Shown here one piece after another: positions 6,570 through 39,525 of a DNA stretch of 64,000 nucleotides (its first letter is position 1; every line of letters starts with the position of its first letter). This stretch comes from a phage: sequence record PZ386974.1. One strand, 5' to 3'. The notes under the pieces are model-generated. The model saw only the letters and a program-made list of their open reading frames with translations, did no database searches and was not told the DNA's origin. Position numbers and translations under genes: made by a program.

Positions 6570-8783
6570 TTATTTGGCCGCTTCCACGGCCTTCATGAAT
6601 TTAACGATTTGAGCGACCTGTTCTTTAGAAAGAGTACCACGTCGTCCCATGTATTCTGACACAATATGATAATTGGTTTCAAATTCAATAACCATTTTAT
6701 CATCATTATCGTAAGCATTATCTTTAAGCTTATCGAAAATTTTAGCACACAATTCTAACTTCTTATTCAGATCTCTGTTAGTAGCACCTGAGAATCGATT
6801 CCATCCCCAACGATTATTTACTGTTGAAAGTTTTGCAAAATCTTTACTGATTTCTTTGTTCTTAGAGCTAAAATACTTACTAAGGAAGTTGAGCTCTTCA
6901 TTACGAGTAATATGATTCAAATAAGGCTGTGCTCTACGACTTGGTGATACATACTCATCATAATCTACTTTATCGATTAGCATAATATAGTCATTAATTG
7001 ATTTTTCAAACAAACATTCTACTTCACCAAGTTTACGAACTTTCTTAGCAATCTGTGGACGGACTACAGTGAACTCTTTAATACCTGACAAATCAGCAAT
7101 ACGGGTCAAGAAATTGGAGTCATAGTTCAACCAACCTTTATCTGCGTCAAGACATTCAGCATTAGAACGATTACGAACTATAGCATAACCTTGGATTTCA
7201 TCAGCTTCACTCGCCGGAATAAAGAGATCTTCTGATACCCAAACATCGTTTTCATTCTTAAAGAACCGATGAGCACTCGGGGATTTAGGACGAGGCCCAT
7301 TAGAACGAGTCTTGACTTCAATCCATGGCTTAACGATTTGTAAAAGCTCTGAAGTCTTGTACATGTTAATGTTGTCGCCATCAAAGATAACTTTAAGGCG
7401 TTCCAGAAGTTTCATTGCGTCTTCGTCTGTAGGGTCAACGAATAGTACGCTTTTACCAAAACCACGTGGGACTTTACCGGTTAATTTAACCTCGTCTTTA
7501 GACATTTCAATTGAATTAAGAGCTCGCATTAATGGAACACGTCCCTTAACGTCATCAATAACAATTTCAACGTTTTTAATGTTAATGCCAATCAGACTGT
7601 TAATTGAAATAGTTGCAGATGAGCTACCACTTTCACGAATACGACGAAGACGAGGGTCTTCAATGATATCGTATACGACGCCGAGATTACACCATTCGGG
7701 TCCCATTTTAAAACGTTTGTACAACTCAGAATAAGTTAGTTGTTCTTTAGAATATTTCAGAGATTCAATATTAGACCCAGCCTTTTCCATGTATTTGCGA
7801 GCGGTATAGCCAAGAGAATCAATTTCACGGAACACATGGCGCGGGTATTTACAATCAATCCATTTCTTAGAATCTTCAGCGAACAATTTAGCATCGATTT
7901 CTGCAACGCGTTTATGGATATTTGCTACTGTACGTTTATCAAATGACAATGCTTCACGAGACGGGGCTACATCTAGTTCACCCATAGGGAATTTAATATA
8001 AGCTGTAGTGCATCGCGTCATCATCCATGTTTGTTCTTTAATAACACTTCCGATTGGATATACAATACCACCATAAACAGCCATGATATTACCACGTTCA
8101 CCCCATGGAGCTTCCTTGGCCAAATATACATCGTCAAATTCAGGGAAGTATTTGATATCTTTAACACCGCGAACTTCTGCAATATCACCTAGAGGACGCA
8201 TAACATATGCAATTTCAGATGCGAACTTTTCAAAATCTTCTGGGTTAACCGGTACAACTACTTCTACACCCGTACGGTCATCAGGGCCCATCTTATCTAC
8301 GAAGGTTGGCTTAATCTGTGGACCACTGTCATCTTGATAAATTACATAACCACGAACTTCACCGTTGTGATAAGATGTAAGGTTAAACGTATCGGTATAT
8401 GCTAGTGGAGCTTTAGAGCCGAGTCCGAATCCACCAATGAAATCGTTACTCGATGTTTTAGTTGAAGCAAAATATGAGTTATAGATTCCTGGCTCTTCGT
8501 CATTACCTCGAATGGTGAAATCACTCATACCAGGACCAAAGTCTCGAACTACAAAACGCGGGTCTAAACGACCTGGAGCCTGAACAATAAACTTATCAGT
8601 GCAACCATTAAGAATTTGTCCATCGATACAGTTTGTGATTAATTCACGTACACAAGCCAATTCTTTGTTTGTATAAAGGTCATTAGACAAAATCTTATAA
8701 ACTTTGCTATTGCCTTGAATAGTAAATGCTGTGCTCTTACCGCCTGAACCAATAATCGTTTCTTTAGCCGTTTCAATAATCAT
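6570..8783 (-). CDS. rIIA: rIIA protein
   Basis: 737 aa; N-terminal region with DLYTNK...RELITN...PGRLDPRFV...DFGPGMS matches recalled T4 rIIA. Confidence 0.85.
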   Translation of the reverse strand: MIIETAKETIIGSGGKSTAFTIQGNSKVYKILSNDLYTNKELACVRELITNCIDGQILNGCTDKFIVQAPGRLDPRFVVRDFGPGMSDFTIRGNDEEPGIYNSYFASTKTSSNDFIGGFGLGSKAPLAYTDTFNLTSYHNGEVRGYVIYQDDSGPQIKPTFVDKMGPDDRTGVEVVVPVNPEDFEKFASEIAYVMRPLGDIAEVRGVKDIKYFPEFDDVYLAKEAPWGERGNIMAVYGGIVYPIGSVIKEQTWMMTRCTTAYIKFPMGELDVAPSREALSFDKRTVANIHKRVAEIDAKLFAEDSKKWIDCKYPRHVFREIDSLGYTARKYMEKAGSNIESLKYSKEQLTYSELYKRFKMGPEWCNLGVVYDIIEDPRLRRIRESGSSSATISINSLIGINIKNVEIVIDDVKGRVPLMRALNSIEMSKDEVKLTGKVPRGFGKSVLFVDPTDEDAMKLLERLKVIFDGDNINMYKTSELLQIVKPWIEVKTRSNGPRPKSPSAHRFFKNENDVWVSEDLFIPASEADEIQGYAIVRNRSNAECLDADKGWLNYDSNFLTRIADLSGIKEFTVVRPQIAKKVRKLGEVECLFEKSINDYIMLIDKVDYDEYVSPSRRAQPYLNHITRNEELNFLSKYFSSKNKEISKDFAKLSTVNNRWGWNRFSGATNRDLNKKLELCAKIFDKLKDNAYDNDDKMVIEFETNYHIVSEYMGRRGTLSKEQVAQIVKFMKAVEAAK

Positions 8784-9088: not shown

Positions 9089-10189
9089 TTACGCTGTGAA
9101 GATTTTATCCCACATCGCAACAACTGCATCTCGATTATACTTCTTCCATACTGCTTCAGCACGTTTAACTCGAGCTTCGTATGTGTCAGTGAATTCTAAT
9201 ACAGCTTTTGTGTAAAGCGCAACTACTTCTTTCTTAGGAGTAGAGGAATCAATTTCTACACGCACAGTATCTGGGTCATATTCGAATGTCGCGTGCGGAT
9301 AATCCTTAAAAACTAACTGGATTACAGGGACACCTTTAGAGATGGCTTCAATAGAACTATTCTCTACCGTACCTGTGTCAGGACACGTATTAATAAGTGC
9401 TTTAGCTGTTTTAAGACGTTCCATAATTTCACTGTGTGGAGCATCAATAATAACAGGATATTTAGCCGGTGGTGCCCATTTACTAGGACAGTATCCTACA
9501 CCATTTTCGCCTAGTGCTTTAATCGCTTCAAGAGCAACATCAGTACGACGCATTTTAGTGTCATAACGTTGTGCACTAATAATCAGATCAGTCGCCGGAA
9601 GAACTTCAGGTTTCTCATTCAAACAAATAACCGGATAATCTTCGGCTTCAAACAACGGATTTGCTCGCCAATAATCATAATCAATTTTGTCAGTCAGACC
9701 CGAAGTCATATAACAATATTTACGTTCAAATTCACGGAAGGCTTTAGTAGGAGCATAACTCTTACCACCATTCTTATGAATTTGAATAGTCTGGTCCCAA
9801 ATTTGAACAATGCCACGAGATACCGGTTCAAATGGTGTTGCCATAAAATTCTTATGAACTTTAGAGAGACCTGCGTCTTTAATTGCCTGAACGGTTAGTT
9901 TGGTCGGTTCCATTGTAACAACGAAATCATACTCATTAATGCCGGCTAGTTCAACAATCTTACGAGCCATAGTATAACTCATACCTAGACTGAATTTAGT
10001 CAGATGACCAACAGGATGATGATTAACTTTCCAATCACCAAATGTGTCATTATCAAAACCGATATAATCAATATCGGCACCGATGGACACAAGATATTTC
10101 AACACATTTAAATGTACTGCTTCAAGACCACCTTGTACACGTTCTGGGTTAAATGGGACTGCGCGAGATGGGATAAACATAACTTTCAT
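9089..10189 (-). CDS. GT-B fold glycosyltransferase, candidate hmC-DNA pentosyl(arabinosyl)transferase
   Basis: 366 aa; C-terminal segment TGTVENSSIEAISKGVPVI resembles GT4-type donor-binding motif; sits where T4 has gene 60/mobA. Confidence 0.6.
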   Translation of the reverse strand: MKVMFIPSRAVPFNPERVQGGLEAVHLNVLKYLVSIGADIDYIGFDNDTFGDWKVNHHPVGHLTKFSLGMSYTMARKIVELAGINEYDFVVTMEPTKLTVQAIKDAGLSKVHKNFMATPFEPVSRGIVQIWDQTIQIHKNGGKSYAPTKAFREFERKYCYMTSGLTDKIDYDYWRANPLFEAEDYPVICLNEKPEVLPATDLIISAQRYDTKMRRTDVALEAIKALGENGVGYCPSKWAPPAKYPVIIDAPHSEIMERLKTAKALINTCPDTGTVENSSIEAISKGVPVIQLVFKDYPHATFEYDPDTVRVEIDSSTPKKEVVALYTKAVLEFTDTYEARVKRAEAVWKKYNRDAVVAMWDKIFTA

Positions 10190-28619: not shown

Positions 28620-28961
28620 TTAAAAGAATTTAAATTTTTTCTTGGTCCGTTCATTAAAAGCTTGTTGTACTTGCATTGTAACACATTTTTCAACATGTGG
28701 TGCAAGTTCTGCTTTTCTGTCCTGATCAAGAACTGCAAAGTCCATTACGATTTTACCATCAACCCAGTCTAGTTTTGTAATATAGACTATATGATGGGAA
28801 CCGTCTTCAAGTGTAATCAGAATCTCTTGAATGACATTTTCCATTGCTGAACGGACAATTTTAAGAGATTCATTAAACACTCGTTCTTTGCGAATGTCTT
28901 CCCCTTCCGAAGAAGGGGATTCATCAACGATTTCTAGATTTAAATCATCGAGATTATTCAT
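28620..28961 (-). CDS. 40: gp40-like protein (113 aa)
   Basis: Position between uvsX and 41 as in T4; track start is TTG, ATG at 28961. Confidence 0.45.
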   Translation of the reverse strand: MNNLDDLNLEIVDESPSSEGEDIRKERVFNESLKIVRSAMENVIQEILITLEDGSHHIVYITKLDWVDGKIVMDFAVLDQDRKAELAPHVEKCVTMQVQQAFNERTKKKFKFF

Positions 28962-30126
28962 CGAAATCTTCCATTTCGTCAAGGTCGTTTTCTATATCTG
29001 CTGCAGATGGAGCATCAGAAGTTTTAACCGGAACTTTAGTTGTTGCTTTGCAATTAATAAGGTCGTTAACAGCGTCATCAACTTCTTTAATAGAAGAGAT
29101 AGCACCTAGTTTATATTTAGTTTCAATTGCATCTCGGAAAGGTTTGTGTTTAAACAAAGGTCCCCAGAATTCTACACAATCAGTAGCTTTAGCACGCCAT
29201 GATTTTTCTTCACGAATCATTTCACCTGTTTCTTCGTCAAGGAATTCACGAGCATACCAACCGGCTTTAGGCTTAACTACAAAACCAATTTCAGTTGCCA
29301 TTTCTAACAAGCCACTGAATGGGTCAATACCGCCATCAAAATTAACCGTGATTGGGAAAGTAGATTTCTCTTTAACTGTACGAGATTTTTCTGCTTTCAA
29401 CGTGAAGTCATAACCGGTCAATTCTGTACCTTCTTTAACCTGACGTTTAGAGATAAAGAATACAGTGTTAGCAGAGTAAAGAATACCTGTACCACCACCC
29501 ATAATCTCTTTAGGATACAATCCGCCGATTTCCATTGCTGTATGGTTGATTGCAACACACGGAATATCTTTAATAGTCAGATAAGGAGTCACAATGCGGA
29601 ACAGAGATTTAAGTGCCTTAGCACGAGACATATCACCTACAACTTTCTCGTTCAACGCATCTTCGGTTTCTTTCTTAGATGCAGTATTACCAATCGAGTC
29701 AATAAAGATAATAACTTTATCACCGCGTTCAATAGCATCAAGCTGATTAGTCATATCAACTTTAAGTTGTTCGACAGATTGAATCGGAGTATGAACTACA
29801 CGGTCTAAATCAACACCCATTGAACGAAAATAAGATTCTGAAGCACCAAATTCCGAATCATAGAACAAACAAATTGCATCTTTATATTTCTTCATATATG
29901 CTGCAACCATGGTCAGTCCAAACAATGTTTTAAAATGTTTAGAAGGAGCAGCAAAAATAGTTAAGCCTGATTGCAACCCGGCATTCAGTGCACCACCTAA
30001 TGCAATATTCAACATCGGAATACGAGTAGGGACTTCATCACGATTATTAAACAGCTTAGACTTAGTCAAGTCTGCAGTCATTTTAGAAGTAGAAGCTTTA
30101 ATCAGACGAGATTTTAAATCAGACAT
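28954..30126 (-). CDS. uvsX: UvsX RecA-like recombinase
   Basis: 390 aa; RecA fold motifs; matches recalled T4 UvsX length and position. Confidence 0.9.
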   Translation of the reverse strand: MSDLKSRLIKASTSKMTADLTKSKLFNNRDEVPTRIPMLNIALGGALNAGLQSGLTIFAAPSKHFKTLFGLTMVAAYMKKYKDAICLFYDSEFGASESYFRSMGVDLDRVVHTPIQSVEQLKVDMTNQLDAIERGDKVIIFIDSIGNTASKKETEDALNEKVVGDMSRAKALKSLFRIVTPYLTIKDIPCVAINHTAMEIGGLYPKEIMGGGTGILYSANTVFFISKRQVKEGTELTGYDFTLKAEKSRTVKEKSTFPITVNFDGGIDPFSGLLEMATEIGFVVKPKAGWYAREFLDEETGEMIREEKSWRAKATDCVEFWGPLFKHKPFRDAIETKYKLGAISSIKEVDDAVNDLINCKATTKVPVKTSDAPSAADIENDLDEMEDFDE

Positions 30127-30224
30127 TGTATTTTTCCATAGGCATCATTATATTTTACTCATGTTTAAAAGATAAGACGATTATATACTAAGGGTTATAC
30201 AGCATTTAAAACTTTAAATGGCTC

Positions 30225-30773
30225 TTAACGAGCCCATTTGATGATTTCTGTAATCAAACCATTACGTTCGCTTGCATTAAATCCTATAACTTTGTTAGCA
30301 CCATCATGATTAAGTAATTGATACGTTTGGATTTTGTTATGAATTGCAAACTCTTCAAAATGTGAAATGACTGTATTAAAACCGAATGAAGACAAAGTAA
30401 TAAGGTCGTCTTCAAAACTTTCAGTCATTTCGTTACGTGTTAAAATAATTGTGAACACATCATGGTTTTGGCAAAGACGAACATAATCCTGTTCATAAAC
30501 ATCAAGAACCGAGTCCGCATCTTGTCGAATACGTCCATAAACCCAGTTACTAATATATCCACGGTCTAACAGATAAATCTTAGTAGGGTCTAAATAATTC
30601 AACATCGTTTCGAAACAGCCAACTTCATTTCGAGACTTAACATCGAAACGTCCATCAACCGTTCGTTTAGGGAAATCAATCTTTACATATCTTTCACTAA
30701 TTTCCATTATGTCATTAATGAAAGTTGTTTTACCAGCATTATCCGGGCCATCTACTAAAATAATTTTAGCCAT
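30225..30773 (-). CDS. P-loop kinase-like protein (182 aa)
   Basis: Walker A GPDNAGKTT near N-terminus; small nucleotide/sugar kinase-like size. Confidence 0.5.
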   Translation of the reverse strand: MAKIILVDGPDNAGKTTFINDIMEISERYVKIDFPKRTVDGRFDVKSRNEVGCFETMLNYLDPTKIYLLDRGYISNWVYGRIRQDADSVLDVYEQDYVRLCQNHDVFTIILTRNEMTESFEDDLITLSSFGFNTVISHFEEFAIHNKIQTYQLLNHDGANKVIGFNASERNGLITEIIKWAR

Positions 30774-30774
30774 T

Positions 30775-31674
30775 TTATTCCTCGATTACGACATCTTCGT
30801 ATTTAGGTATATTATACGGCGAAGAAATTAAAGCATTAAAGTAGATGAACTCACCAAGACCTGGATGGAATACTTCTTCAGGATTTTCGAAATATTGAAT
30901 CTTCGGACGTCCTTTAAGAATTTGATAGTACTCAGTTTTAGTTGGTTTAAAAATTCGAATCAGCGCTTCTTCAGGATACTTATTTCTGTCGAAGCTATTA
31001 TTTGGATCGGTTATATAAAGCGGTTGGCCTAATTGAATTGCACATTCAACCACTTGTTCAAAACGATAGCATGGGTCACTAATTCGAAATGGATGAAAAA
31101 TACCATCTAGATGAATAGGAGCCAAATCACCTACAAGACGCTGCATGATGGAAGGACGTATAACTTTCTGCGTTACGATAATCTTATTACCATCTGCACC
31201 TGCGTTAACCAGCACTTCTTTTTGACGTTCATTCAACACAGTAGTTTGAAGTGAACGATTAACAGACAACATGTCGGTTTTTAAGAATTCATCAATATAA
31301 AAACGTGGTTTATTAGGGTCTGCAGTGATATTGAAATTGAATTCTACGTCAAAAGCGCCATCATATCCAGTGATATCTGTGATTAGAAAATCACAATCAT
31401 AATAAGCAATTAATGAATCAACCACAAATTCATTTTCAGACCAGAAATATTTACGAGTGTTATACGCGTTATCTTTATACCATAATGGAACAAACTTAAA
31501 TTCTGGGAAAAGACGTTCACATTCTTTAATATCAGATGCATTACGTGGATATGTAATCACATCGCCTGGATTAGCACGGTGCAAATGAAGTTGGAAGTTG
31601 CCATCCTTAAGGATAGCATACTGTCCAGTTTCATAAGACCGCATACTCAAAATAGGTACGCGGAAAATAGCCAT
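30775..31674 (-). CDS. hypothetical protein in beta-glucosyltransferase position (299 aa)
   Basis: Occupies T4 beta-gt locus between 42 and uvsX; no recognisable motif; TAATG-coupled to gene 42. Confidence 0.45.
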   Translation of the reverse strand: MAIFRVPILSMRSYETGQYAILKDGNFQLHLHRANPGDVITYPRNASDIKECERLFPEFKFVPLWYKDNAYNTRKYFWSENEFVVDSLIAYYDCDFLITDITGYDGAFDVEFNFNITADPNKPRFYIDEFLKTDMLSVNRSLQTTVLNERQKEVLVNAGADGNKIIVTQKVIRPSIMQRLVGDLAPIHLDGIFHPFRISDPCYRFEQVVECAIQLGQPLYITDPNNSFDRNKYPEEALIRIFKPTKTEYYQILKGRPKIQYFENPEEVFHPGLGEFIYFNALISSPYNIPKYEDVVIEE

Positions 31675-32390
31675 TAGTCAAGAAATCCTTTAACATAATC
31701 AAAATCACGTTCAAACACATGGGCACTTACCATGGTATGAGTATAATCACCAACTTCTACACCACATTCGTTAGCGATATAATGAAGTAATTTTCCTTGG
31801 AGATAAAAATCCAACTGCATAACAACAGCACAGTTCTGAGAACGCATATGACAGTGGGTATAAAGCTTACCATCGCGAATATAATAAGTCACTGAGTCAG
31901 TACATGGATATTCAAGCGTTTCGTCCGAATCAAGCAAAGCCTGATCAGAACTTTCTAGAATTTGGAACACAACTCTTCGAGAGTTAGGCTTCTCTTTAAG
32001 TTCTTTTAGAAGAGCCGGTAATTGGGCCGCAATGCGAGGACCATAGAAAGTGTTGAAGTTCGCAGGCAAAGCATCTGATTTTGGTTTAGAAATAAATTTA
32101 GCGACATTAGGATATGCTTTAAACGCTTCTTCTGCATCAGTACCACCAGAAATCATAAACTTCCAGAAGTCTTCGGCATATTCATAAGAGATGCGGTTAA
32201 TACGTGGGTCGGTCATTTTGAATGATGATGGATTGTCAACAACTACTGTCATGGACCCGATTTCATTACAACGTCCAATACGAGAATTAGTTACGAATTC
32301 GGGGTTTTCTAAAATTTCACGATTGACTGCTTTAAATGCGGTTTGAAAATCTGCGGCTTTGATATATTTCATTGTGTTATGTTTTCCCAT
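31674..32390 (-). CDS. 42: dCMP hydroxymethylase (thymidylate synthase family)
   Basis: 238 aa; active-site region YPCTDSVTYYIRDGKLYTHCHMRSQN parallels TS/gp42 PC(H)...YQRSxD core. Confidence 0.65.
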   Translation of the reverse strand: MGKHNTMKYIKAADFQTAFKAVNREILENPEFVTNSRIGRCNEIGSMTVVVDNPSSFKMTDPRINRISYEYAEDFWKFMISGGTDAEEAFKAYPNVAKFISKPKSDALPANFNTFYGPRIAAQLPALLKELKEKPNSRRVVFQILESSDQALLDSDETLEYPCTDSVTYYIRDGKLYTHCHMRSQNCAVVMQLDFYLQGKLLHYIANECGVEVGDYTHTMVSAHVFERDFDYVKGFLD

Positions 32391-32432
32391 GTTTACCTCA
32401 ATACAATTTATTATATACTCAATTCGTAAAGC

Positions 32433-32672
32433 TTATTTGAATTTCTTGGCAATGTTGATATAACGTAAAGCTTCAGAATCTATACTTCCAAGAACACTAT
32501 GAAGGAATGCATCAGTGTAGTATTCCAATTGAACAGGTTCTTTAATCACTTTAGCCGCTTTGGTTTCAAACAGGCCCATAAGGGCCTTTTTAAGAATTTG
32601 TTCGTTAGTGTTCAGTTTAATAGTCAAAATCTCTTCGTTAAGATTATAATTAAAAGTTTTTCTAGAAATCAT
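32433..32672 (-). CDS. hypothetical protein (79 aa)
   Basis: ATG ATGA-coupled to upstream ORF. Confidence 0.4.
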   Translation of the reverse strand: MISRKTFNYNLNEEILTIKLNTNEQILKKALMGLFETKAAKVIKEPVQLEYYTDAFLHSVLGSIDSEALRYINIAKKFK

Positions 32673-33838
32673 TCCGGGTACCTCAAAGCGTCATCAGAGT
32701 TAGTTATATCAATAATAGATATAGAGTTTTCTGCTAACCCGTTTTTAGATAATTGACGTTTATAATACCTTTCACAATATGTACACGTTGACCCACAGAT
32801 TTCATTAGCACAATCAAAATCTGGATGTCTGAACCACCTTTTTTCTAAAAAGCCATCTAACAAAGAGGTTTCAATATTTACTGTATGTGAAAACTCAGTC
32901 TCATTTTCAAGAGTGAAAATAGTCTCTAAAGGCTTCCACAGTTCTAACAAATTACCTTCAAACTTTTCAGAAGCGTATGCTTCAAGAACTTTCAAAATGT
33001 AGTCTGTGCTACCTGTACGTCCTGAAACTTTGAATTGAGTGATACCAATATCATTATAAAGTTTCAAATCTTGAGGACGAACAAAACGAGTTCTCAACCA
33101 ATTAAATGGGTCTGTATCACGAGCTTTAATACAGTGCTGCATTGGATATCCGTTTAAGGATTTAGCATCATCAGCTGTAACATCAGTACTATGGAAAATA
33201 TAGCAAGAGTCACGATAGCTACAATGTGTTGTATACCCTTTACCAGCATTAGAACAGAACTCGTTTACAAGAACTTCAAATATTATATTGTTCTTATTGC
33301 AAAACTCTGCTGCACGCTTCAGGAAAGAAACTGAACGGTTCTTATGAATTCCGCAACAGACCTTTTTGATGTTATATTGGTCATGCAAGTATTTGATTTG
33401 AGTTACAGCATCGACATGTAGAATTGTTGAAACTTCAATCTCAATATCTTTATTGACTTCACGAACAATTTCCATAACAACAGGGTTAGCGATAGTAATA
33501 CGCCATACGCCTATTGACCAAAGATACTGAACATAATCCTGAATAGCTTTCTTCTTCCACTCAACTAGTTCTCTTTTTGAACCAGGATTTATCGTGTTGA
33601 GTGTATAGTTAAAGCAAATACCTAATTCGTTACAACGTTTAACGTAATCTTCTAACATCTTTTTGTCAACGTCAGGAAGCCTAAAATCAGGTCTGGCTGC
33701 TACAAAAGCCATTTCTCTTGTAGAGCCGTATACTTCGTTTATCAAGCTATTAGGATAAGTTTTATTGAGCTCTACGATTTTATCAAGAAGAGCTAAATCA
33801 AAATTCGTTCCGATTTTAAAAGTATTCATTTTTTGCAT
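32669..33838 (-). CDS. Cys-rich enzyme of unknown function (389 aa), candidate Fe-S protein
   Basis: C-terminal CANEICGSTCTYC (CX4CX3CXYC) plus internal CSNAGKGYTTHCSYRDSC cluster; embedded in sugar module. Confidence 0.5.
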   Translation of the reverse strand: MQKMNTFKIGTNFDLALLDKIVELNKTYPNSLINEVYGSTREMAFVAARPDFRLPDVDKKMLEDYVKRCNELGICFNYTLNTINPGSKRELVEWKKKAIQDYVQYLWSIGVWRITIANPVVMEIVREVNKDIEIEVSTILHVDAVTQIKYLHDQYNIKKVCCGIHKNRSVSFLKRAAEFCNKNNIIFEVLVNEFCSNAGKGYTTHCSYRDSCYIFHSTDVTADDAKSLNGYPMQHCIKARDTDPFNWLRTRFVRPQDLKLYNDIGITQFKVSGRTGSTDYILKVLEAYASEKFEGNLLELWKPLETIFTLENETEFSHTVNIETSLLDGFLEKRWFRHPDFDCANEICGSTCTYCERYYKRQLSKNGLAENSISIIDITNSDDALRYPE

Positions 33839-33884
33839 CTCGCGTTAATTGATGCGATGGTTTTTGCAGGTCTTACTTAAATTA

Positions 33885-34286
33885 TTATAGGTTCGGTTTA
33901 TATGATTTAAATGTTTCGAATTCGCCTTTATTCATAAGAGCTTTGAATTCGTCGGGACGCATAGCTTTGTCGTCGATAATCCAATCATATACTGGTTTAT
34001 GTGTTAGCAAATTATGGTACTTCAAACCAATGTTTTCCAAGTTCTGAATCAGACTTGGGAGAATGTCAATTGCTATACGACCAGGACCTACTGACTTCAT
34101 ACCGCGAGCAGTGTAAAGCGTTATGGTATGCCCTGCATCATACAGGGCATTAATGGCAGACACCATTTCGACGTCTGGTTTGAAGTTCACGTAATCACGA
34201 TTGTTATTCCACTCTGTTATACAATCATCGACATCAAAATAAAGATTAAGCATGTTTTCTACACGGTGCATTAGATTCGTTCCCAT
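33885..34286 (-). CDS. HAD-superfamily phosphatase-like protein (133 aa)
   Basis: Motif I FDVDDCIT near N-terminus and DD motif DWIIDD near C-terminus. Confidence 0.5.
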   Translation of the reverse strand: MGTNLMHRVENMLNLYFDVDDCITEWNNNRDYVNFKPDVEMVSAINALYDAGHTITLYTARGMKSVGPGRIAIDILPSLIQNLENIGLKYHNLLTHKPVYDWIIDDKAMRPDEFKALMNKGEFETFKSYKPNL

Positions 34287-35956
34287 TGATGAGTGATATC
34301 GCCACCGATTGGACGGTAAGAAACACCAGTTTCTTTATCAGTTAGTACCCATTTACCAGGATTTTTTGTAATCAGAGTAGCCGTTACAGGTTCTGCTACG
34401 TCATAACTAATAGAGCCGTCTTGAAGTACACGGCCCATGTTACGTAATTGCTTAGTCAGAAGTTCCATACCTTTATAATATGCGGCTACCGCTTTAAGTG
34501 GATTATTCTTGAAATAACCACCTAATGCAATCCAGATAATTGCTACGGCCAAATGATGATACTCGTTAAACGAACTCAGCTTTCCATATTTGTAAATTAA
34601 TGGATTGATGTTAATAGTCACATTACAAGTTGTTTCGTCAATAGTAAACTGTCCCCAGGTCGGATTAGCGTTGAATTCATCATAACCTGAAACAGCATAA
34701 AGCACTTTAGCTTCATCATACAATTTTGGCCCGTAAATCTTGGTTTCACCAAAATATCCACGAGGGTCGATAAACTTGACTTCGCCGTTATCAGTAATCA
34801 TAGTATTACTGAAGTTCGGGTCACCATGAATAACAGAGTACTGTCCCTGAGAACGGTTATGATAACGAATAAGGTGTTCTAAAGCTTGTTTCAGCATTGG
34901 CTTCAGACGCCCAATCTTAGTGTAGTTCACATGGGTGATTTTACCAAATGAATCAATCAATGGTTGAATGCTTTCACAACGATCAATAACTTTCGTATAG
35001 AATTCTTTAGTGAAATCACGACGAACAGTTTCAGGACTTACAAAATAAGTGTCTGTGCTGAATTTCAGTGCATCTAAAATTGCATCAACAATTTGTGGAC
35101 GAGCAAGACTTGATTTGGATTTAATATATTCAAATGCCGGCTTACCTTTAATGCGTTCCATTTCAAAGTTATTTTCATTAACAGAAACTAACTGAGGAAC
35201 TGAATCTGATTTCACTTTAAGATACCATGAAATCTCATCTTTCTGAAGAGCTCGACCCTGTTCGGTTAATGCGAATTTAGTTACAGTTTCTTCACCAATT
35301 TCAACTGCATTAAAACTACGATTAAGTTCACGAACTTCATGAGCTTTTTCAAGTTTAGGCATATCACCTAAATCAATTAGATTCATAAGCTCTGATTTAT
35401 TGAATGCGCTGCCGTAAAGGAATTCTACGAAATCACGTCCTTTGCAGTATTCATGAATTTCCTCATCGGTAGAACCCATATAGAATTCCCAGTCTTTGAA
35501 CTGATAAATTCCTACAACATTACCACCTGTTGAACCTACGTTAGTGATATTTTCACCGTCGAAATTATATCGACATTCGTCACCCTTAACATAGATTGCG
35601 TTAACATTCCAAGACCATGAACCAAAATCGGGAATAATATCACACCAGTTAACAATTACATTATGGCCGTCTAAATCTTTGTGTAATTTAGCAAGAGCAT
35701 AAGCAGAACCATACGCTTCATCAACTGTGCGAATAGTCACATTGAACCCTTCTTGCTCACAATAAGCTCGAACAGTTTCAGCAAATTTTGAATGAACTAC
35801 TACAATAATTTCATCTGCGCCAAGGTCAGAATAAATTGTATACAAATTGCTCAGAATAGTGTCTTGTTTATAGTTAACAAGCACCTTAGGAATATGATGC
35901 GTTATTGGATATAAACGAGTCGCCAGTCCAGCACCAAGAATAACAGCTTTTTTCAT
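34271..35956 (-). CDS. bifunctional sugar-1-phosphate nucleotidyltransferase / APH-like sugar kinase
   Basis: N-terminus ILGAGLATRLYPIT (G-x-G-T-R-L NTase motif); C-terminal HGDPNFSNTMITDNGEVKFIDPRG (Brenner kinase motif). Confidence 0.7.
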   Translation of the reverse strand: MKKAVILGAGLATRLYPITHHIPKVLVNYKQDTILSNLYTIYSDLGADEIIVVVHSKFAETVRAYCEQEGFNVTIRTVDEAYGSAYALAKLHKDLDGHNVIVNWCDIIPDFGSWSWNVNAIYVKGDECRYNFDGENITNVGSTGGNVVGIYQFKDWEFYMGSTDEEIHEYCKGRDFVEFLYGSAFNKSELMNLIDLGDMPKLEKAHEVRELNRSFNAVEIGEETVTKFALTEQGRALQKDEISWYLKVKSDSVPQLVSVNENNFEMERIKGKPAFEYIKSKSSLARPQIVDAILDALKFSTDTYFVSPETVRRDFTKEFYTKVIDRCESIQPLIDSFGKITHVNYTKIGRLKPMLKQALEHLIRYHNRSQGQYSVIHGDPNFSNTMITDNGEVKFIDPRGYFGETKIYGPKLYDEAKVLYAVSGYDEFNANPTWGQFTIDETTCNVTININPLIYKYGKLSSFNEYHHLAVAIIWIALGGYFKNNPLKAVAAYYKGMELLTKQLRNMGRVLQDGSISYDVAEPVTATLITKNPGKWVLTDKETGVSYRPIGGDITHQWERI

Positions 35957-35997
35957 GTTGAAGTCCTCATTGGTAAGTAGGAGTATTGTACACTATT

Positions 35998-36141
35998 CTA
36001 GTTAAAGCATTCATACTTTGCTTGTAGTCCAATCATAATCCATCCAATTACAAGTGTTGGAATCATTACTGGAGCCGTTAAGCTCCAGTAGATAGTCATG
36101 ACAAGCATCAATAGTAAAAGTCCTATTGTTATTGCTTTCAT
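35998..36141 (-). CDS. small membrane peptide (47 aa), below track threshold
   Basis: ATGA-coupled to SIS gene stop; translation MKAITIGLLLLMLVMTIYWSLTAPVMIPTLVIGWIMIGL... Confidence 0.3.
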   Translation of the reverse strand: MKAITIGLLLLMLVMTIYWSLTAPVMIPTLVIGWIMIGLQAKYECFN

Positions 36142-36773
36142 TGTTCGCCTCGTAACATGGCACCTAGTGCACCGCCTGGATGGAACTTAAGGAAGTCATT
36201 AGAGGTAAATCCACGCTCAGACGAAAGGTTGATAGCGAACGTATCGATAAGCGCTAACAACAATGTAGTGGACATAGTCGGAGCTAAAGAGTTCTCGTCA
36301 ACTTCTACCGCGATACCGGTACAGAACGTATAATCAAAAAGAGCTTCGTATTCTTGTGGAATGTCAGGGTTACAATGTAACAGAATCTGTTTAACCTGAG
36401 GACGAATCATACGAAGATGTTTAGCAACACCTATCATTTCTTCAGTCTTACCAGAACGACTGATGTGAACTAATACATCATTAGGTGCAATAAATCCTGC
36501 GTCACCATGAGAATAATGCCCGGTGTTCAAGTACATACTCGGGATACCGAGTGAAGCAAATGTCTCAGAAGCTTTAGTTGCAATATTAGCATTCTTACCA
36601 ACACCTGTAATAATTACTCGGCTTTCATAATTACTAAGTCCTGGGCGTCGAAGAGTTTCTAGAATAGCATTATAACGAGCAGGGTTTTGACTAATTACTT
36701 TGGCCATAGCGGCCAAAGAAGAAGCTTGTTTTATGATTGCGTCAATAGCGATAGTAATAGGAGTAGTTTTCAT
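36138..36773 (-). CDS. SIS-domain sugar-phosphate isomerase (KdsD/GutQ-like arabinose-5-phosphate isomerase type)
   Basis: 211 aa; GVGKNANIA...HGDAG...SRSGKTEE...LAPTMSTT match SIS/API motifs. Confidence 0.7.
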   Translation of the reverse strand: MKTTPITIAIDAIIKQASSLAAMAKVISQNPARYNAILETLRRPGLSNYESRVIITGVGKNANIATKASETFASLGIPSMYLNTGHYSHGDAGFIAPNDVLVHISRSGKTEEMIGVAKHLRMIRPQVKQILLHCNPDIPQEYEALFDYTFCTGIAVEVDENSLAPTMSTTLLLALIDTFAINLSSERGFTSNDFLKFHPGGALGAMLRGEQ

Positions 36774-36813
36774 ATTTCTCTCATTTAATTAGTTTACCGT
36801 CCATGTCATTATA

Positions 36814-39525
36814 TCAAAAATCGAACATATCGAACAGAGATGCTTTCTTCTCGTAATCGAGTTTCGCTGCTGATGTGAATCCTTCAAGTGGTTTAATAAA
36901 TGTCTTCTCAAGGAGAACAGTGTAGTCCATCCAATGAAGTACGTCGTCTTTAATTAAATCTGTGATTTCAGTACCAGAAGGCCATGCGATACATTTATCA
37001 CCGAATGGGTTTCCTTCACGTAAAGGCAGAACATATACTTTTTCACCTTCTACAACTTGCGGCGCATCGATATTACCTTTGATAGCCCGGTTATACGTCA
37101 GAATTCCACGAATATGGAACGGGCATTTGGGACCAGGGAATCCACCGACGTCATATTTAGCAATGTTATTCGCAGAAGATACCGACGCGATGCTAATATA
37201 ATTCAATTGACGGAATTCTTTTTCAAACTCTTTAAAATATTCTTGTAATGATTCTTCACCTTCTTGAAGCATACGACGAATACATTCCTTAAGAGCTTTC
37301 TGTACTGCTTTAGGGGTCGAAGATTTCTGAGTCTCTAGACCCATGATTTTGAGTTTAGGCTCAGCGTATCTGGTTCCTTCCATATCCCACACGTTTAATG
37401 CATAACGTTTCTTACCAGTCCAAAATCCGCCAATACCTTTAGAACCAAGCGGAGGCCCAGCGATAGCTTCTCGGTCCATGAACATTAAGTGTTGTTTATT
37501 GTTCATGTATTCACACATTTCACGGAAACCTCTATCAATAGCAGGTTCCATACGTTCACGTGCAAACTTATCTAAGAAGTCTACCCAATGGTTGGTATCA
37601 CGGAATTTAGATTCACCAACCTTATCGATAATTTTATCAGCAGATACGTAAATAGAGTCTGTATCACCATAAAGAACGAAAGCTTCACCTTCTGTACCAC
37701 AAACTTCATTCAGATATTCATTAACTTTACGTTCAATCCACTGTAAAGCCATTTGCCCGAATGTTGTGATTGCAGTAGCATTACGCAAATCATAATAACG
37801 GAACCAAACGTTGCCAAGTGCACCATAAAGTGAGTTGATGAGCAATTTACGGTTAATTTGTGCAGTCATACCTGCAACTTCAGTACGTTGAGCTCTAAAC
37901 AACATTTCGTTAAGAGATTTAGCAGACAACTTTTTAATCTTTTCTTTAATCTCATCACTGAAGTCGAAACGATAATCAACATCTAATGGTTCGTCAACAG
38001 AAAGATTAGGATTATGCAATGCCTCTTTAATTATTTCACCATTGCGTTGAGCCGCAAGCATATAACCTTTGTGTTCTTTACGTTGATTAAAGACTTTAGT
38101 GATTTCAGTTGGAACAACACCGTCACGGTCTTTATAATACATCATGCCGTTAGGAGAACAACTGTACACATCAGAAGGACGTTCAGCAACAGCGTTAATA
38201 TAATCATGCAATGGAGCTACTTTAAACGTTCCTGCTATTGTTTCTGGGCTAATATTCACTTGGCGAATAATACTTGGATACAGAGATGTGAGGTCGAAGC
38301 TCATCACATATTTGTATCGATTTGGAATAGGTTCCTTAACAAAAGCGCCAGGATAAGGTTGAACCGGATGAGAACGACCTTGTGGAATCACCTTGTTCTG
38401 CTCTTTAAGGCTATTAAAAATAATAGCATCCCATGTTTTAATTGGGCTAAACACAGATTGAATCTGTATCTTAGCATAATAACCCATGTCCAAGCTCAAG
38501 TTAATGAACTGACGTTTACCATCAATTTGCAATACACGATACACGTCGATAATGTTATAAGAAATATATCGTTGGTGATTGCTTTCACGAAGCTTAGAAA
38601 TAGGGCCGTCATATTTCAGTTTACCAACGTTCAATTCAAATTCTGAAATGTAATCCAGAGAATACGACGGTTGATTGGTAAAAGAGAATTTTTTGTAAAG
38701 GTCAATGTAATCAAGAACAGAGATACCGAACAATGTAATGATTTCACGAGAACCATACATGTTTTCGATAACTTTAACACGAGTTTTACGATGTGGTGAT
38801 AAACGTTTCGCAGTAGATTCGCCAAAAATATTCTTGATTCGGTTATACACATATGGAATATCAAATGACTCAACGTTCCATCCAGTCAAAATGACAGGAG
38901 TTTTCTGTTGCCAGAAGTTGAGATATTCCATCAACAATTCTTTTTCATTATCGAACGGCATATAAATGATTTTATCGATAATTTCGGATGGAACTTCATC
39001 ACCACCTTGTTCTTGAAGCTTAGCCGCAATTTCGATAGACCATTCTTCCACATTACCGTATGGAGAATTCAAAAGGTCAAATACGTAGAACCTGTCGTCA
39101 ATTGAGTCATAATGGGTGATAGCATCAATCGGATGTTTTGCTTGTGACGGCTCAGGGAACCCGTCCGGAGATGTTACTTCGATGTCGAAGTTAGCCACAC
39201 GAATTTTTGTATGGTCGTATTTGATTTCATAGTTATAAGTGTCAGACAAATACGCCAATTTGAAATCGTCCATGCCAAGTGCTTCAAGTCCGATATCTTC
39301 CATGCGTTTAATCCATTGGGAGGCATCACGCATATTAGCGAACAACTTACGAGTACACGGCTTACCGTAGATATCGAAATATTTCGTAGCCTGACTTTCT
39401 GGACAATGAGCAAACAGTGATGGTTTATATTCTACTTCACGAGTACGTTCACGGCCATTAGAATCGATGTAACGTTCAAAAATTGAATCACCAATCTGTT
39501 CAACCGTTAAGTAAAATTCTTTCAT
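36814..39525 (-). CDS. 43: DNA polymerase (family B)
   Basis: 903 aa; sequence appears essentially identical to RB69 gp43 as recalled (MKEFYLTVEQIGDSIFERYIDSNGRER..., YGDTDS). Confidence 0.95.
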   Translation of the reverse strand: MKEFYLTVEQIGDSIFERYIDSNGRERTREVEYKPSLFAHCPESQATKYFDIYGKPCTRKLFANMRDASQWIKRMEDIGLEALGMDDFKLAYLSDTYNYEIKYDHTKIRVANFDIEVTSPDGFPEPSQAKHPIDAITHYDSIDDRFYVFDLLNSPYGNVEEWSIEIAAKLQEQGGDEVPSEIIDKIIYMPFDNEKELLMEYLNFWQQKTPVILTGWNVESFDIPYVYNRIKNIFGESTAKRLSPHRKTRVKVIENMYGSREIITLFGISVLDYIDLYKKFSFTNQPSYSLDYISEFELNVGKLKYDGPISKLRESNHQRYISYNIIDVYRVLQIDGKRQFINLSLDMGYYAKIQIQSVFSPIKTWDAIIFNSLKEQNKVIPQGRSHPVQPYPGAFVKEPIPNRYKYVMSFDLTSLYPSIIRQVNISPETIAGTFKVAPLHDYINAVAERPSDVYSCSPNGMMYYKDRDGVVPTEITKVFNQRKEHKGYMLAAQRNGEIIKEALHNPNLSVDEPLDVDYRFDFSDEIKEKIKKLSAKSLNEMLFRAQRTEVAGMTAQINRKLLINSLYGALGNVWFRYYDLRNATAITTFGQMALQWIERKVNEYLNEVCGTEGEAFVLYGDTDSIYVSADKIIDKVGESKFRDTNHWVDFLDKFARERMEPAIDRGFREMCEYMNNKQHLMFMDREAIAGPPLGSKGIGGFWTGKKRYALNVWDMEGTRYAEPKLKIMGLETQKSSTPKAVQKALKECIRRMLQEGEESLQEYFKEFEKEFRQLNYISIASVSSANNIAKYDVGGFPGPKCPFHIRGILTYNRAIKGNIDAPQVVEGEKVYVLPLREGNPFGDKCIAWPSGTEITDLIKDDVLHWMDYTVLLEKTFIKPLEGFTSAAKLDYEKKASLFDMFDF

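Follow-up and report, generated by a model that had tools for sequence, protein, structure and literature searches.

What takes the place of the beta-glucosyltransferase in T4-type phages whose DNA is not built on the T4 pattern, and what do the genes found there do? The slot between uvsX and the gene 42 homologue holds beta-gt in T4 (PMC6024577), and in the phage of sequence record PZ386974.1, analysed here as a window of 64,000 nucleotides, the corresponding slot holds two minus-strand open reading frames (ORFs) that each start with ATG, one of 299 amino acids (aa; 30775-31674) and one of 182 aa (30225-30773). A sequence-only reading of positions 30225-31674, whose coordinates and strand for both genes agree with the ORF list, had proposed a second, divergent transferase and a sugar or nucleotide kinase for extra decoration of glucosylated 5-hydroxymethylcytosine (hmC), or else unrelated accessory genes. 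The pair, together with an adjoining homologue of thymidylate synthase, is here read as probably forming a conserved three-gene core that replaces cytosine by O-glycosylated 5-hydroxycytosine, in which the kinase would act on 5-hydroxy-deoxycytidine monophosphate (5-hydroxy-dCMP) and the transferase on DNA. The finding is largely known, since the transferase is orthologous to an enzyme already predicted in print, and the same paper names the kinase without explaining it (PMC13326640). New here are the co-occurrence counts, a copy-number rule, the reach of the family into Pootjesviridae and metagenomic lineages, fusions between transferase and kinase, and the keeping of the kinase alongside a gp1-type deoxynucleoside monophosphate (dNMP) kinase.

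Neither ORF is a chance occurrence, because both have tblastn homologues in hundreds of phage records, down to 25-45% identity, with conserved gene order. Many Mosigvirus genomes, such as those of the LF82 phages, Shf125875 and Bas46 'ChristianSchoenbein', share 99% identity with the 2-kb region, and the source phage is itself an RB69-like Mosigvirus. The gene order is the same in Bas46, where the two genes are annotated as bas46_0141 (hypothetical) and bas46_0140 (putative thymidylate kinase).

The synthase homologue and the modified base

The pair is flanked on one side by uvsX (28954-30126, minus strand) and on the other by the gene that opens the three-gene core, a 238-aa homologue of thymidylate synthase with a match to Pfam Thymidylat_synt (31674-32390, minus strand). 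The sequence-only reading had the position right, but the gene that it took for gene 42 encodes a 5-hydroxy-dCMP synthase: the product is near-identical to PDB 9iqc/9ir2/9iqu (E 1e-160), and its RB69 counterpart, gp48, has been shown experimentally to be a flavin-dependent 5-hydroxy-dCMP synthase, which hydroxylates dCMP and so performs the first step of the pathway considered here (PMC13326640). The three genes are spaced for coupled translation, with the synthase stop overlapping the start of the 299-aa ORF in a TAATG junction and a single base separating the 299-aa stop from the kinase ATG (TAA-A-ATG).

RB69 was originally believed to carry arabinosyl-hmC (PMC6024577), a view revised by Lee et al. 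(Nucleic Acids Research, 2026), who identified the base as 5-hydroxycytosine and the modified residue of RB69 DNA as beta-D-Araf-(1-3)-alpha-D-Araf-5-O-dC, in which Araf is arabinofuranose (PMC13326640). Mono- and di-arabinofuranosyl-5-hydroxycytosine are found in relatives (PMC13326640, PMC13390438), and the glucosyl-hmC presumed by the sequence-only reading does not hold: the DNA of the source phage carries Araf-Araf-5-hydroxycytosine, not hmC. Other findings in this stretch that were built on hmC chemistry need to be re-read, the synthase being of the 5-hydroxy-dCMP type. Arabinosyl-5-hydroxycytosine is reported to guard phage DNA against restriction enzymes, the Brig1 glycosylase and type I CRISPR-Cas, as summarised in PMC13216743 with reference to Mahler et al. 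2025. The same modification makes phage DNA difficult to sequence and to engineer.

Identity and fold of the 299-aa transferase

In tblastn comparisons the 299-aa protein is 99.3% identical both to RB69 ORF046c+ORF047c and to HY126 XAN60474, 46% identical to DLP3 gp79 and 47.5% identical to Thanatos TH1_063, and it is, judged by sequence, orthologous to RB69 gp46:47, HY126 XAN60474, bas46_0141, DLP3 gp79 and Thanatos TH1_063. The ORF is intact here, whereas the RB69 reference record splits its counterpart in two by a sequencing error. RB69 gp46:47 has been treated in print as a single ORF and, like DLP3 gp79, predicted to be (alpha-)arabinosyltransferase 1, with gp3 as predicted transferase 2 (PMC13326640), and this two-transferase proposal for Mosigvirus is repeated in the Durham-collection paper (PMC13390438). 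Public records leave the transferase as a 'hypothetical protein' or wrongly label it 'RNA polymerase binding protein', and they enter the kinase as 'thymidylate kinase'; correct naming would therefore be useful for annotating therapeutic Mosigvirus phages. The label 'RNA polymerase binding protein', which is spread by UniRef and is also used in the LC53 record, appears to be an annotation error.

Sequence searches with the 299-aa protein were blank: no match was found in Pfam or NCBIfam at E<=0.1 or 0.01, none in PDB sequences with either the single sequence or a 72-sequence profile, and PHROGs assigns the protein to a family of unknown function. The fold is consequently visible from structure prediction only. 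Such a prediction had been proposed as a check by the sequence-only reading, and an AlphaFold2 model built from an alignment of 72 homologues (A1) has a predicted local distance difference test (pLDDT) score of 95.5 and a predicted template modelling (pTM) score of 0.90. The model contains two Rossmann-like beta/alpha/beta domains and a C-terminal helix that crosses back, the arrangement of the GT-B fold. Its structural neighbours include sucrose-phosphate synthase 6kih (score 17.3), BshA (16.7), PimA (15.9), the HY126 glycosyltransferase 9iqz (14.3) and T4 alpha-glucosyltransferase 1y6f (13.2); the best Foldseek match is the retaining enzyme MshA 3c4q, and these structural matches agree with published ones. 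Judged by the model, the protein belongs to the GT-B glycosyltransferases of GT4-like type, albeit with a sequence that lies outside the curated Pfam models Glycos_transf_1 and Glyco_trans_4, and the alpha linkage of the first arabinose would fit a retaining GT4-like fold.

The family is small: in a set of 1.84 billion proteins it has 233 representatives at E<=1e-3. Residues invariant in the C-terminal half are F193, P195, F196, R197, D200, Y203, T222, P224, N225, K246, H270, P271 and G272, and both an Arg after the first strand of the C-domain and an invariant Lys are present, as read from the sequence alignment. With the alpha- and beta-glucosyltransferases of T4 the protein shares no detectable sequence similarity, and it is approximately 50-100 residues shorter. 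The T4 enzymes move glucose to a hydroxymethyl group, whereas the predicted sugar of the 299-aa enzyme is arabinofuranose and its predicted acceptor is the ring 5-OH of 5-hydroxycytosine, which would place the ether directly on the base.

A second transferase and the number of sugars

The add-on transferase of this phage is a GT4-like protein of 366 aa, orthologous to RB69 gp3 and encoded far from the pair (9089-10189, minus strand). At E 7e-249 its sequence is virtually the same as that of PDB 9iqz and 9ir0, both deposited as 'phage HY126 glycosyltransferase', 9ir0 with uridine diphosphate (UDP), and it is 43% identical to DLP3 gp77. The gp3-type proteins (RB69 gp3, HY126 9iqz and 9ir0, DLP3 gp76-77) constitute a family separate from that of the 299-aa enzyme, with no sequence or profile similarity between the two, and occur in a subset of phages only, in 212 phage records as against 349 for the 299-aa transferase. 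The gp3 type is encoded at one place in Mosigvirus and at two in the listed Acinetobacter phages, and no homologue was found in Thanatos or in Klebsiella, Serratia or Dhakavirus phages. DLP3 gp76 and gp77 act together on DNA that is already arabinosylated (PMC13326640).

The reported sugar count exceeds the number of gp3-type copies by one, being one in Thanatos (PMC12838424, PMC13326640), two in RB69 and NP (PMC13326640, PMC13390438) and three in DLP3 (PMC13326640). Because of this rule, the 299-aa family is predicted to be the base-proximal enzyme, most likely an (alpha-)arabinofuranosyltransferase acting on 5-hydroxycytosine. The sequence-only reading had cast the 299-aa protein as the second transferase, for extra decoration; it is instead universal and most likely base-proximal, and the 366-aa transferase probably adds the second, beta-linked arabinose. 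Thanatos TH1_065, which lies at the position of DLP3 gp77, was considered as a second transferase and rejected; as a transferase it would have broken the correspondence of one transferase to one sugar, and it is ruled out because it is a U32 protein.

The 182-aa kinase

The 182-aa protein begins MAKIILVDGPDNAGKTT and has the Walker A motif GPDNAGKTT at its N-terminus, exactly where the sequence-only reading had placed it. It can be assigned as the orthologue of RB69 gp45, bas46_0140, DLP3 gp78 and Thanatos TH1_064; gp45 appears as 'nucleotide kinase' in Table 1 of the paper on RB69, with no further discussion (PMC13326640). The protein shows the P-loop nucleoside monophosphate (NMP) kinase fold of thymidylate kinases (TMPKs), with a LID and an NMP-binding region. 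When tested for the TMPK signature set GxDxxGK(S/T)T, FPxR and DR(Y/H)xxS, it was found to carry GPDNAGKTT, FPKR and LDRGYISNWVYG, and across 24 homologues there is no variation at G9, D11, G14, K15, T16, F34, P35, K36, D70, R71 and S75. HMMER pairs the P-loop and FPKR with GLDKSGKTT...FPQR of the vaccinia enzyme and GLDRTGKTT...FPER of the yeast enzyme, and pairs LDRGYISNWVYG with the DRY region of both. In TMPK structures the P-loop Asp touches the deoxyribose 3'-OH and two arginines grip the 5'-phosphate of the dNMP. As the kinase retains the dNMP-binding residues of TMPKs, its substrate is most likely a deoxynucleoside monophosphate, and not a sugar or a polymer.

The kinase is only 14-19% identical to the thymidylate kinases of vaccinia (2v54) and yeast (1tmk). 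Its TIGR00041 score is 16.3 bits against a cut-off of 83, and PF02223 (Thymidylate_kin) was not reported for it in the Pfam search; because it falls under these curated cut-offs, the protein is best described as TMPK-like and not as a bona fide dTMP kinase equivalog. The substrate is presumably modified dCMP, not dTMP. Both folds envisaged by the sequence-only reading, a divergent transferase and a P-loop kinase, were recovered, as GT-B and thymidylate-kinase-like folds respectively, but the sugar-kinase role that it allowed for is unlikely, given the retained TMPK residues for the dNMP. That role was also rejected on two other grounds. The route to UDP-arabinofuranose (UDP-Araf) is reported to be complete without this protein, in the account of He et al. 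2026 given by PMC13326640, and the kinase accompanies synthase and transferase in a phage of Pootjesviridae as well, the family of the hexose user RL38JI (PMC13326640).

Phosphorylation of the polymer, at the 5-OH of the base or at the attached arabinose, is the decoration by phosphorylation that the sequence-only reading had allowed for, and it would resemble the work of the 5-hydroxymethyluracil DNA kinases (5-HMUDKs) of thymidine hypermodification. P-loop kinases that phosphorylate a base in DNA are a precedent for such a role (PMC8989533), and a sugar phosphate would have escaped notice because the analyses of virion nucleosides use phosphatase (PMC13326640). This role is nevertheless hardly likely, since the residues by which TMPKs hold the 5'-phosphate and 3'-OH of a free dNMP are retained and a UDP-sugar transferase requires no phosphorylated acceptor; moreover, the validated 5-HMUDK M6 gp54 matches the kinase family over a 23-residue P-loop only. 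A 5-HMUDK-like DNA-base kinase was accordingly rejected as a candidate, hmmsearch and hhalign against M6 gp54 aligning 22-23 residues, all of the P-loop.

Co-occurrence, gene order and fusions

The distributions of the two families are almost superimposable: tblastn picks up the 299-aa transferase in 349 phage records and its partner kinase in 344, the hosts of the two sets are nearly the same, and the pair co-occurs in about 345 phage genomes. In Serratia phage WSPA the kinase was missed by tblastn yet is present, overlapping the transferase gene. The genes for synthase, transferase and kinase form an unbroken row in HY126, Thanatos, DLP3, WSPA and metagenomic contig L007, where the row consists of a flavodoxin-like reductase, synthase (55% identical), transferase and kinase (30% identical). 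They are contiguous but permuted in JS98 (kinase-synthase-transferase), and in contig L005 transferase and kinase overlap, with a synthase-like gene approximately 1 kb upstream. In Rhizobium phage RHph_N34 (Pootjesviridae; L017 1568-5091) the row runs gp1-like dNMP kinase, nucleoside triphosphate pyrophosphohydrolase, synthase, transferase-family protein and TMPK-like kinase, so that gp1-like and TMPK-like kinases coexist in one phage. RL38JI, another phage of Pootjesviridae, carries hexosylated 5-hydroxycytosine (PMC13326640), and because the family of RHph_N34 thus includes a phage with hexoses, the 299-aa transferase family is probably not arabinose-specific. Association with a synthase homologue was found in the source phage, HY126, Thanatos, DLP3, WSPA, JS98, L007, L005, L013 and RHph_N34; the 12-14 kb inspected at loci L010 and L011 contained no synthase homologue.

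Transferase and kinase are joined in one chain in seven representative proteins, with the kinase C-terminal in six (P0254, P0255, P0260, P0264, P0280 and P0286) and N-terminal in P0261. By hhalign, the kinase part of these chains and the stand-alone kinase are homologues (probability 94%, E 1e-7, 135 columns), and the fused domains give sub-threshold matches to Pfam Thymidylate_kin. Contigs of several fusion proteins are too short for gene context; the contexts seen are arabinosylation-type clusters with isomerase, AfhE-like gene and U32 gene. At least six further proteins (P0166, P0176, P0178, P0179, P0195 and P0204) combine an N-terminal HAD phosphatase domain with a transferase of this family, and in locus L013 such a fusion (7001-8656) follows the synthase and precedes an isomerase and an AfhE-like gene. 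The L013 locus, 15.6 kb long, has neither a separate phosphatase nor a kinase homologue. Since HAD-transferase fusions occur too, a fusion indicates membership of the same pathway and not necessarily consecutive steps.

Co-occurrence, conserved gene order and fusions refute the suggestion that these are unrelated accessory genes, and the same evidence bears on whether the kinase could be an ordinary dTMP or other housekeeping nucleotide kinase that neighbours the modification genes by chance. The database name 'thymidylate kinase' and the TMPK fold and motifs speak for such a role, which is nonetheless very unlikely: the family, unlike thymidylate kinases at large, occurs only in phages with a 5-hydroxycytosine modification cluster, in a distribution that almost exactly mirrors that of the transferase, several lineages encode it in one chain with the transferase, and its TIGR00041 and PF02223 results are those described above. 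The need for dTMP phosphorylation is, in addition, already covered in T4-type phages, where gp1 handles dTMP. We infer that the 182-aa kinase has an integral and non-redundant part in the pathway and acts on modified dCMP.

Addition of the first sugar: on DNA or on the nucleotide?

In the pathway favoured here, the 182-aa kinase would use ATP to convert a modified deoxycytidylate, likeliest the 5-hydroxy-dCMP formed by the synthase, to the diphosphate that supplies the phage polymerase, working alongside the gp1-type dNMP kinase and either boosting the phosphorylation of 5-hydroxy-dCMP or specialising in it. The 299-aa enzyme would then link the first alpha-arabinose from UDP-Araf to the 5-OH, most probably once 5-hydroxycytosine is in DNA, a step to which the fold, comparative genomics and the published proposal all point; the donor would come from the neighbouring isomerase, kinase/uridylyltransferase and phosphatase genes. 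The 366-aa transferase (9089-10189) would finally attach the second arabinose.

Several observations weigh against this pathway. DLP3 gp79 gave no product on 5-hydroxycytosine DNA with UDP-Araf or UDP-arabinopyranose, the other single DLP3 transferases likewise gave none, and the authors cannot tell whether the first arabinosylation takes place on the mononucleotide or on DNA (PMC13326640). No biochemical activity of the 299-aa transferase was found in the literature covered, which does not include He et al. 2026 and Mahler et al. 2025, and its sequence shows no recognisable canonical GT4 EX7E motif. RB69 gp159, a gp1 homologue and likewise a phage kinase that takes modified dCMP to the diphosphate, has been shown to do so with 5-hydroxy-dCMP (PMC13326640), so that a plain 5-hydroxy-dCMP kinase would be redundant; despite this expected redundancy, the TMPK-like kinase is kept in every genome examined and adjoins a gp1-like kinase in RHph_N34. 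Lastly, purified Thanatos TH1_063, 47.5% identical to the 299-aa protein, formed UDP-xylose from uridine triphosphate and xylose-1-phosphate in vitro and did not xylosylate plasmid DNA (PMC12838424).

The last result would make the 299-aa protein a UDP-pentose pyrophosphorylase, as reported for TH1_063, and not a base transferase. This is very improbable, as the fold is GT-B and not a nucleotidyltransferase fold, and the 561-aa protein of the cluster already holds a dedicated uridylyltransferase domain (PMC13326640). Thanatos would also be left with no transferase at all, given that no gp3-type homologue was found there and that TH1_065 is a U32 protein, and the UDP-xylose could have arisen by reverse transfer to phosphate or UDP or from a co-purified host enzyme.

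The main rival is a route in which glycosylation precedes replication. The 299-aa enzyme would arabinosylate free 5-hydroxy-dCMP, and the adjacent kinase would be dedicated to arabinosyl-5-hydroxy-dCMP, which would be too bulky for the gp1-type kinase; host nucleoside diphosphate kinase and the phage polymerase would then insert the glycosylated dCTP, and the second sugar alone would be added on DNA. Such a route would account for the inactivity of DLP3 gp79 on 5-hydroxycytosine DNA, with the substrate level left open by its authors, and for the keeping of a TMPK-like kinase beside a gp1-type kinase that already handles 5-hydroxy-dCMP (PMC13326640). It is also in keeping with transferase-kinase fusions in both domain orders and with genes that are mostly adjacent or overlapping in the order synthase-transferase-kinase. 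The structural neighbours of the transferase include sucrose-phosphate synthase, MshA, BshA and a tetrahydrobiopterin glucosyltransferase, enzymes with small, often phosphorylated acceptors. A weak point in the same direction is that the 299-aa family is acidic (median pI 5.2, net charge -10), more so than the DNA-acting gp3 type (pI 5.7-7.2).

Precedent runs the other way, as all characterised phage DNA glycosylation is, to our knowledge, post-replicative, and we know of no earlier natural pathway that builds a glycosylated deoxynucleoside triphosphate for genome replication, which is what this route, if true, would amount to. The fusions of HAD phosphatase to transferase also reduce the force of the transferase-kinase fusions, and in JS98 the kinase lies upstream of the synthase, not beside the transferase. 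An acceptor for the transferase exists in DNA, moreover, because 5-hydroxy-dCTP is readily incorporated (PMC13326640). Glycosylation before replication is therefore regarded as doubtful, and transfer of the first sugar to 5-hydroxycytosine in DNA is preferred. Two questions are raised by the locus, namely why a second, TMPK-like kinase stays tied to the base-proximal transferase and whether the first sugar is added to DNA or to the nucleotide, and the transferase-kinase fusion proteins offer a direct handle on both.

Neighbouring genes

Upstream of the three-gene core, and likewise on the minus strand, lie genes for a HAD phosphatase (33885-34286), a bifunctional nucleotidyltransferase/kinase of 561 aa (34271-35956) and an arabinose-5-phosphate isomerase (36138-36773), all with Pfam, PHROGs and NCBIfam matches. 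UDP-Araf is made by an isomerase, a bifunctional kinase/uridylyltransferase and a phosphatase, and the phosphatase, nucleotidyltransferase/kinase and isomerase genes here are the equivalents of AfhF, AfhE and the isomerase, respectively, according to PMC13326640, which cites He et al. 2026 for these roles. Promoter and terminator scans of 29900-37000 gave sites no more numerous than in shuffled sequence and were not used.

A small conserved ORF of 79 aa (32433-32672, minus strand) lies between the synthase and a U32 gene, its start overlapping the U32 stop by 4 bases. It belongs to phrog_8601, a family of unknown function (E 5e-50), and is annotated whole in Bas46 (bas46_0143), whereas HY126 has just a 40-aa ORF annotated at the corresponding position.

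The U32 gene (32669-33838, minus strand) encodes an Fe-S protein of 389 aa with Pfam, PHROGs and NCBIfam matches and ten invariant cysteines, including a C-terminal CX4CX3CX2C. It is much more conserved than its neighbours, with 79% identity to Thanatos TH1_065 as against 47.5% for the transferase, and proteins from Mosigvirus, Klebsiella phage Marfa and Pectobacterium PM2 share one 90%-identity cluster with it. The gene accompanies transferase-kinase fusions in L010 and L011, the loci in which no synthase homologue was found, and is absent from the DLP3, JS98 and WSPA clusters. The protein of the cluster is listed as a 'sugar or heterocycle reductase' in the 2026 paper (PMC13326640). The cellular U32 proteins RlhA, TrhP and UbiU/V are O2-independent, prephenate-dependent hydroxylases, and RlhA produces 5-hydroxycytidine in ribosomal RNA (PMC5727448, PMC6599085, PMC10990095); by analogy, because of these activities, the U32 protein of the cluster may provide an anaerobic route to 5-hydroxycytosine.

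A gene for a flavodoxin-like protein or a flavin mononucleotide reductase directly adjoins the synthase homologue in two unrelated metagenomic phage contigs, L007 (4739-5293) and L013 (5781-6251). This arrangement suggests that some phages supply their own flavin reductase and agrees with the report that the hydroxylase depends on flavin.

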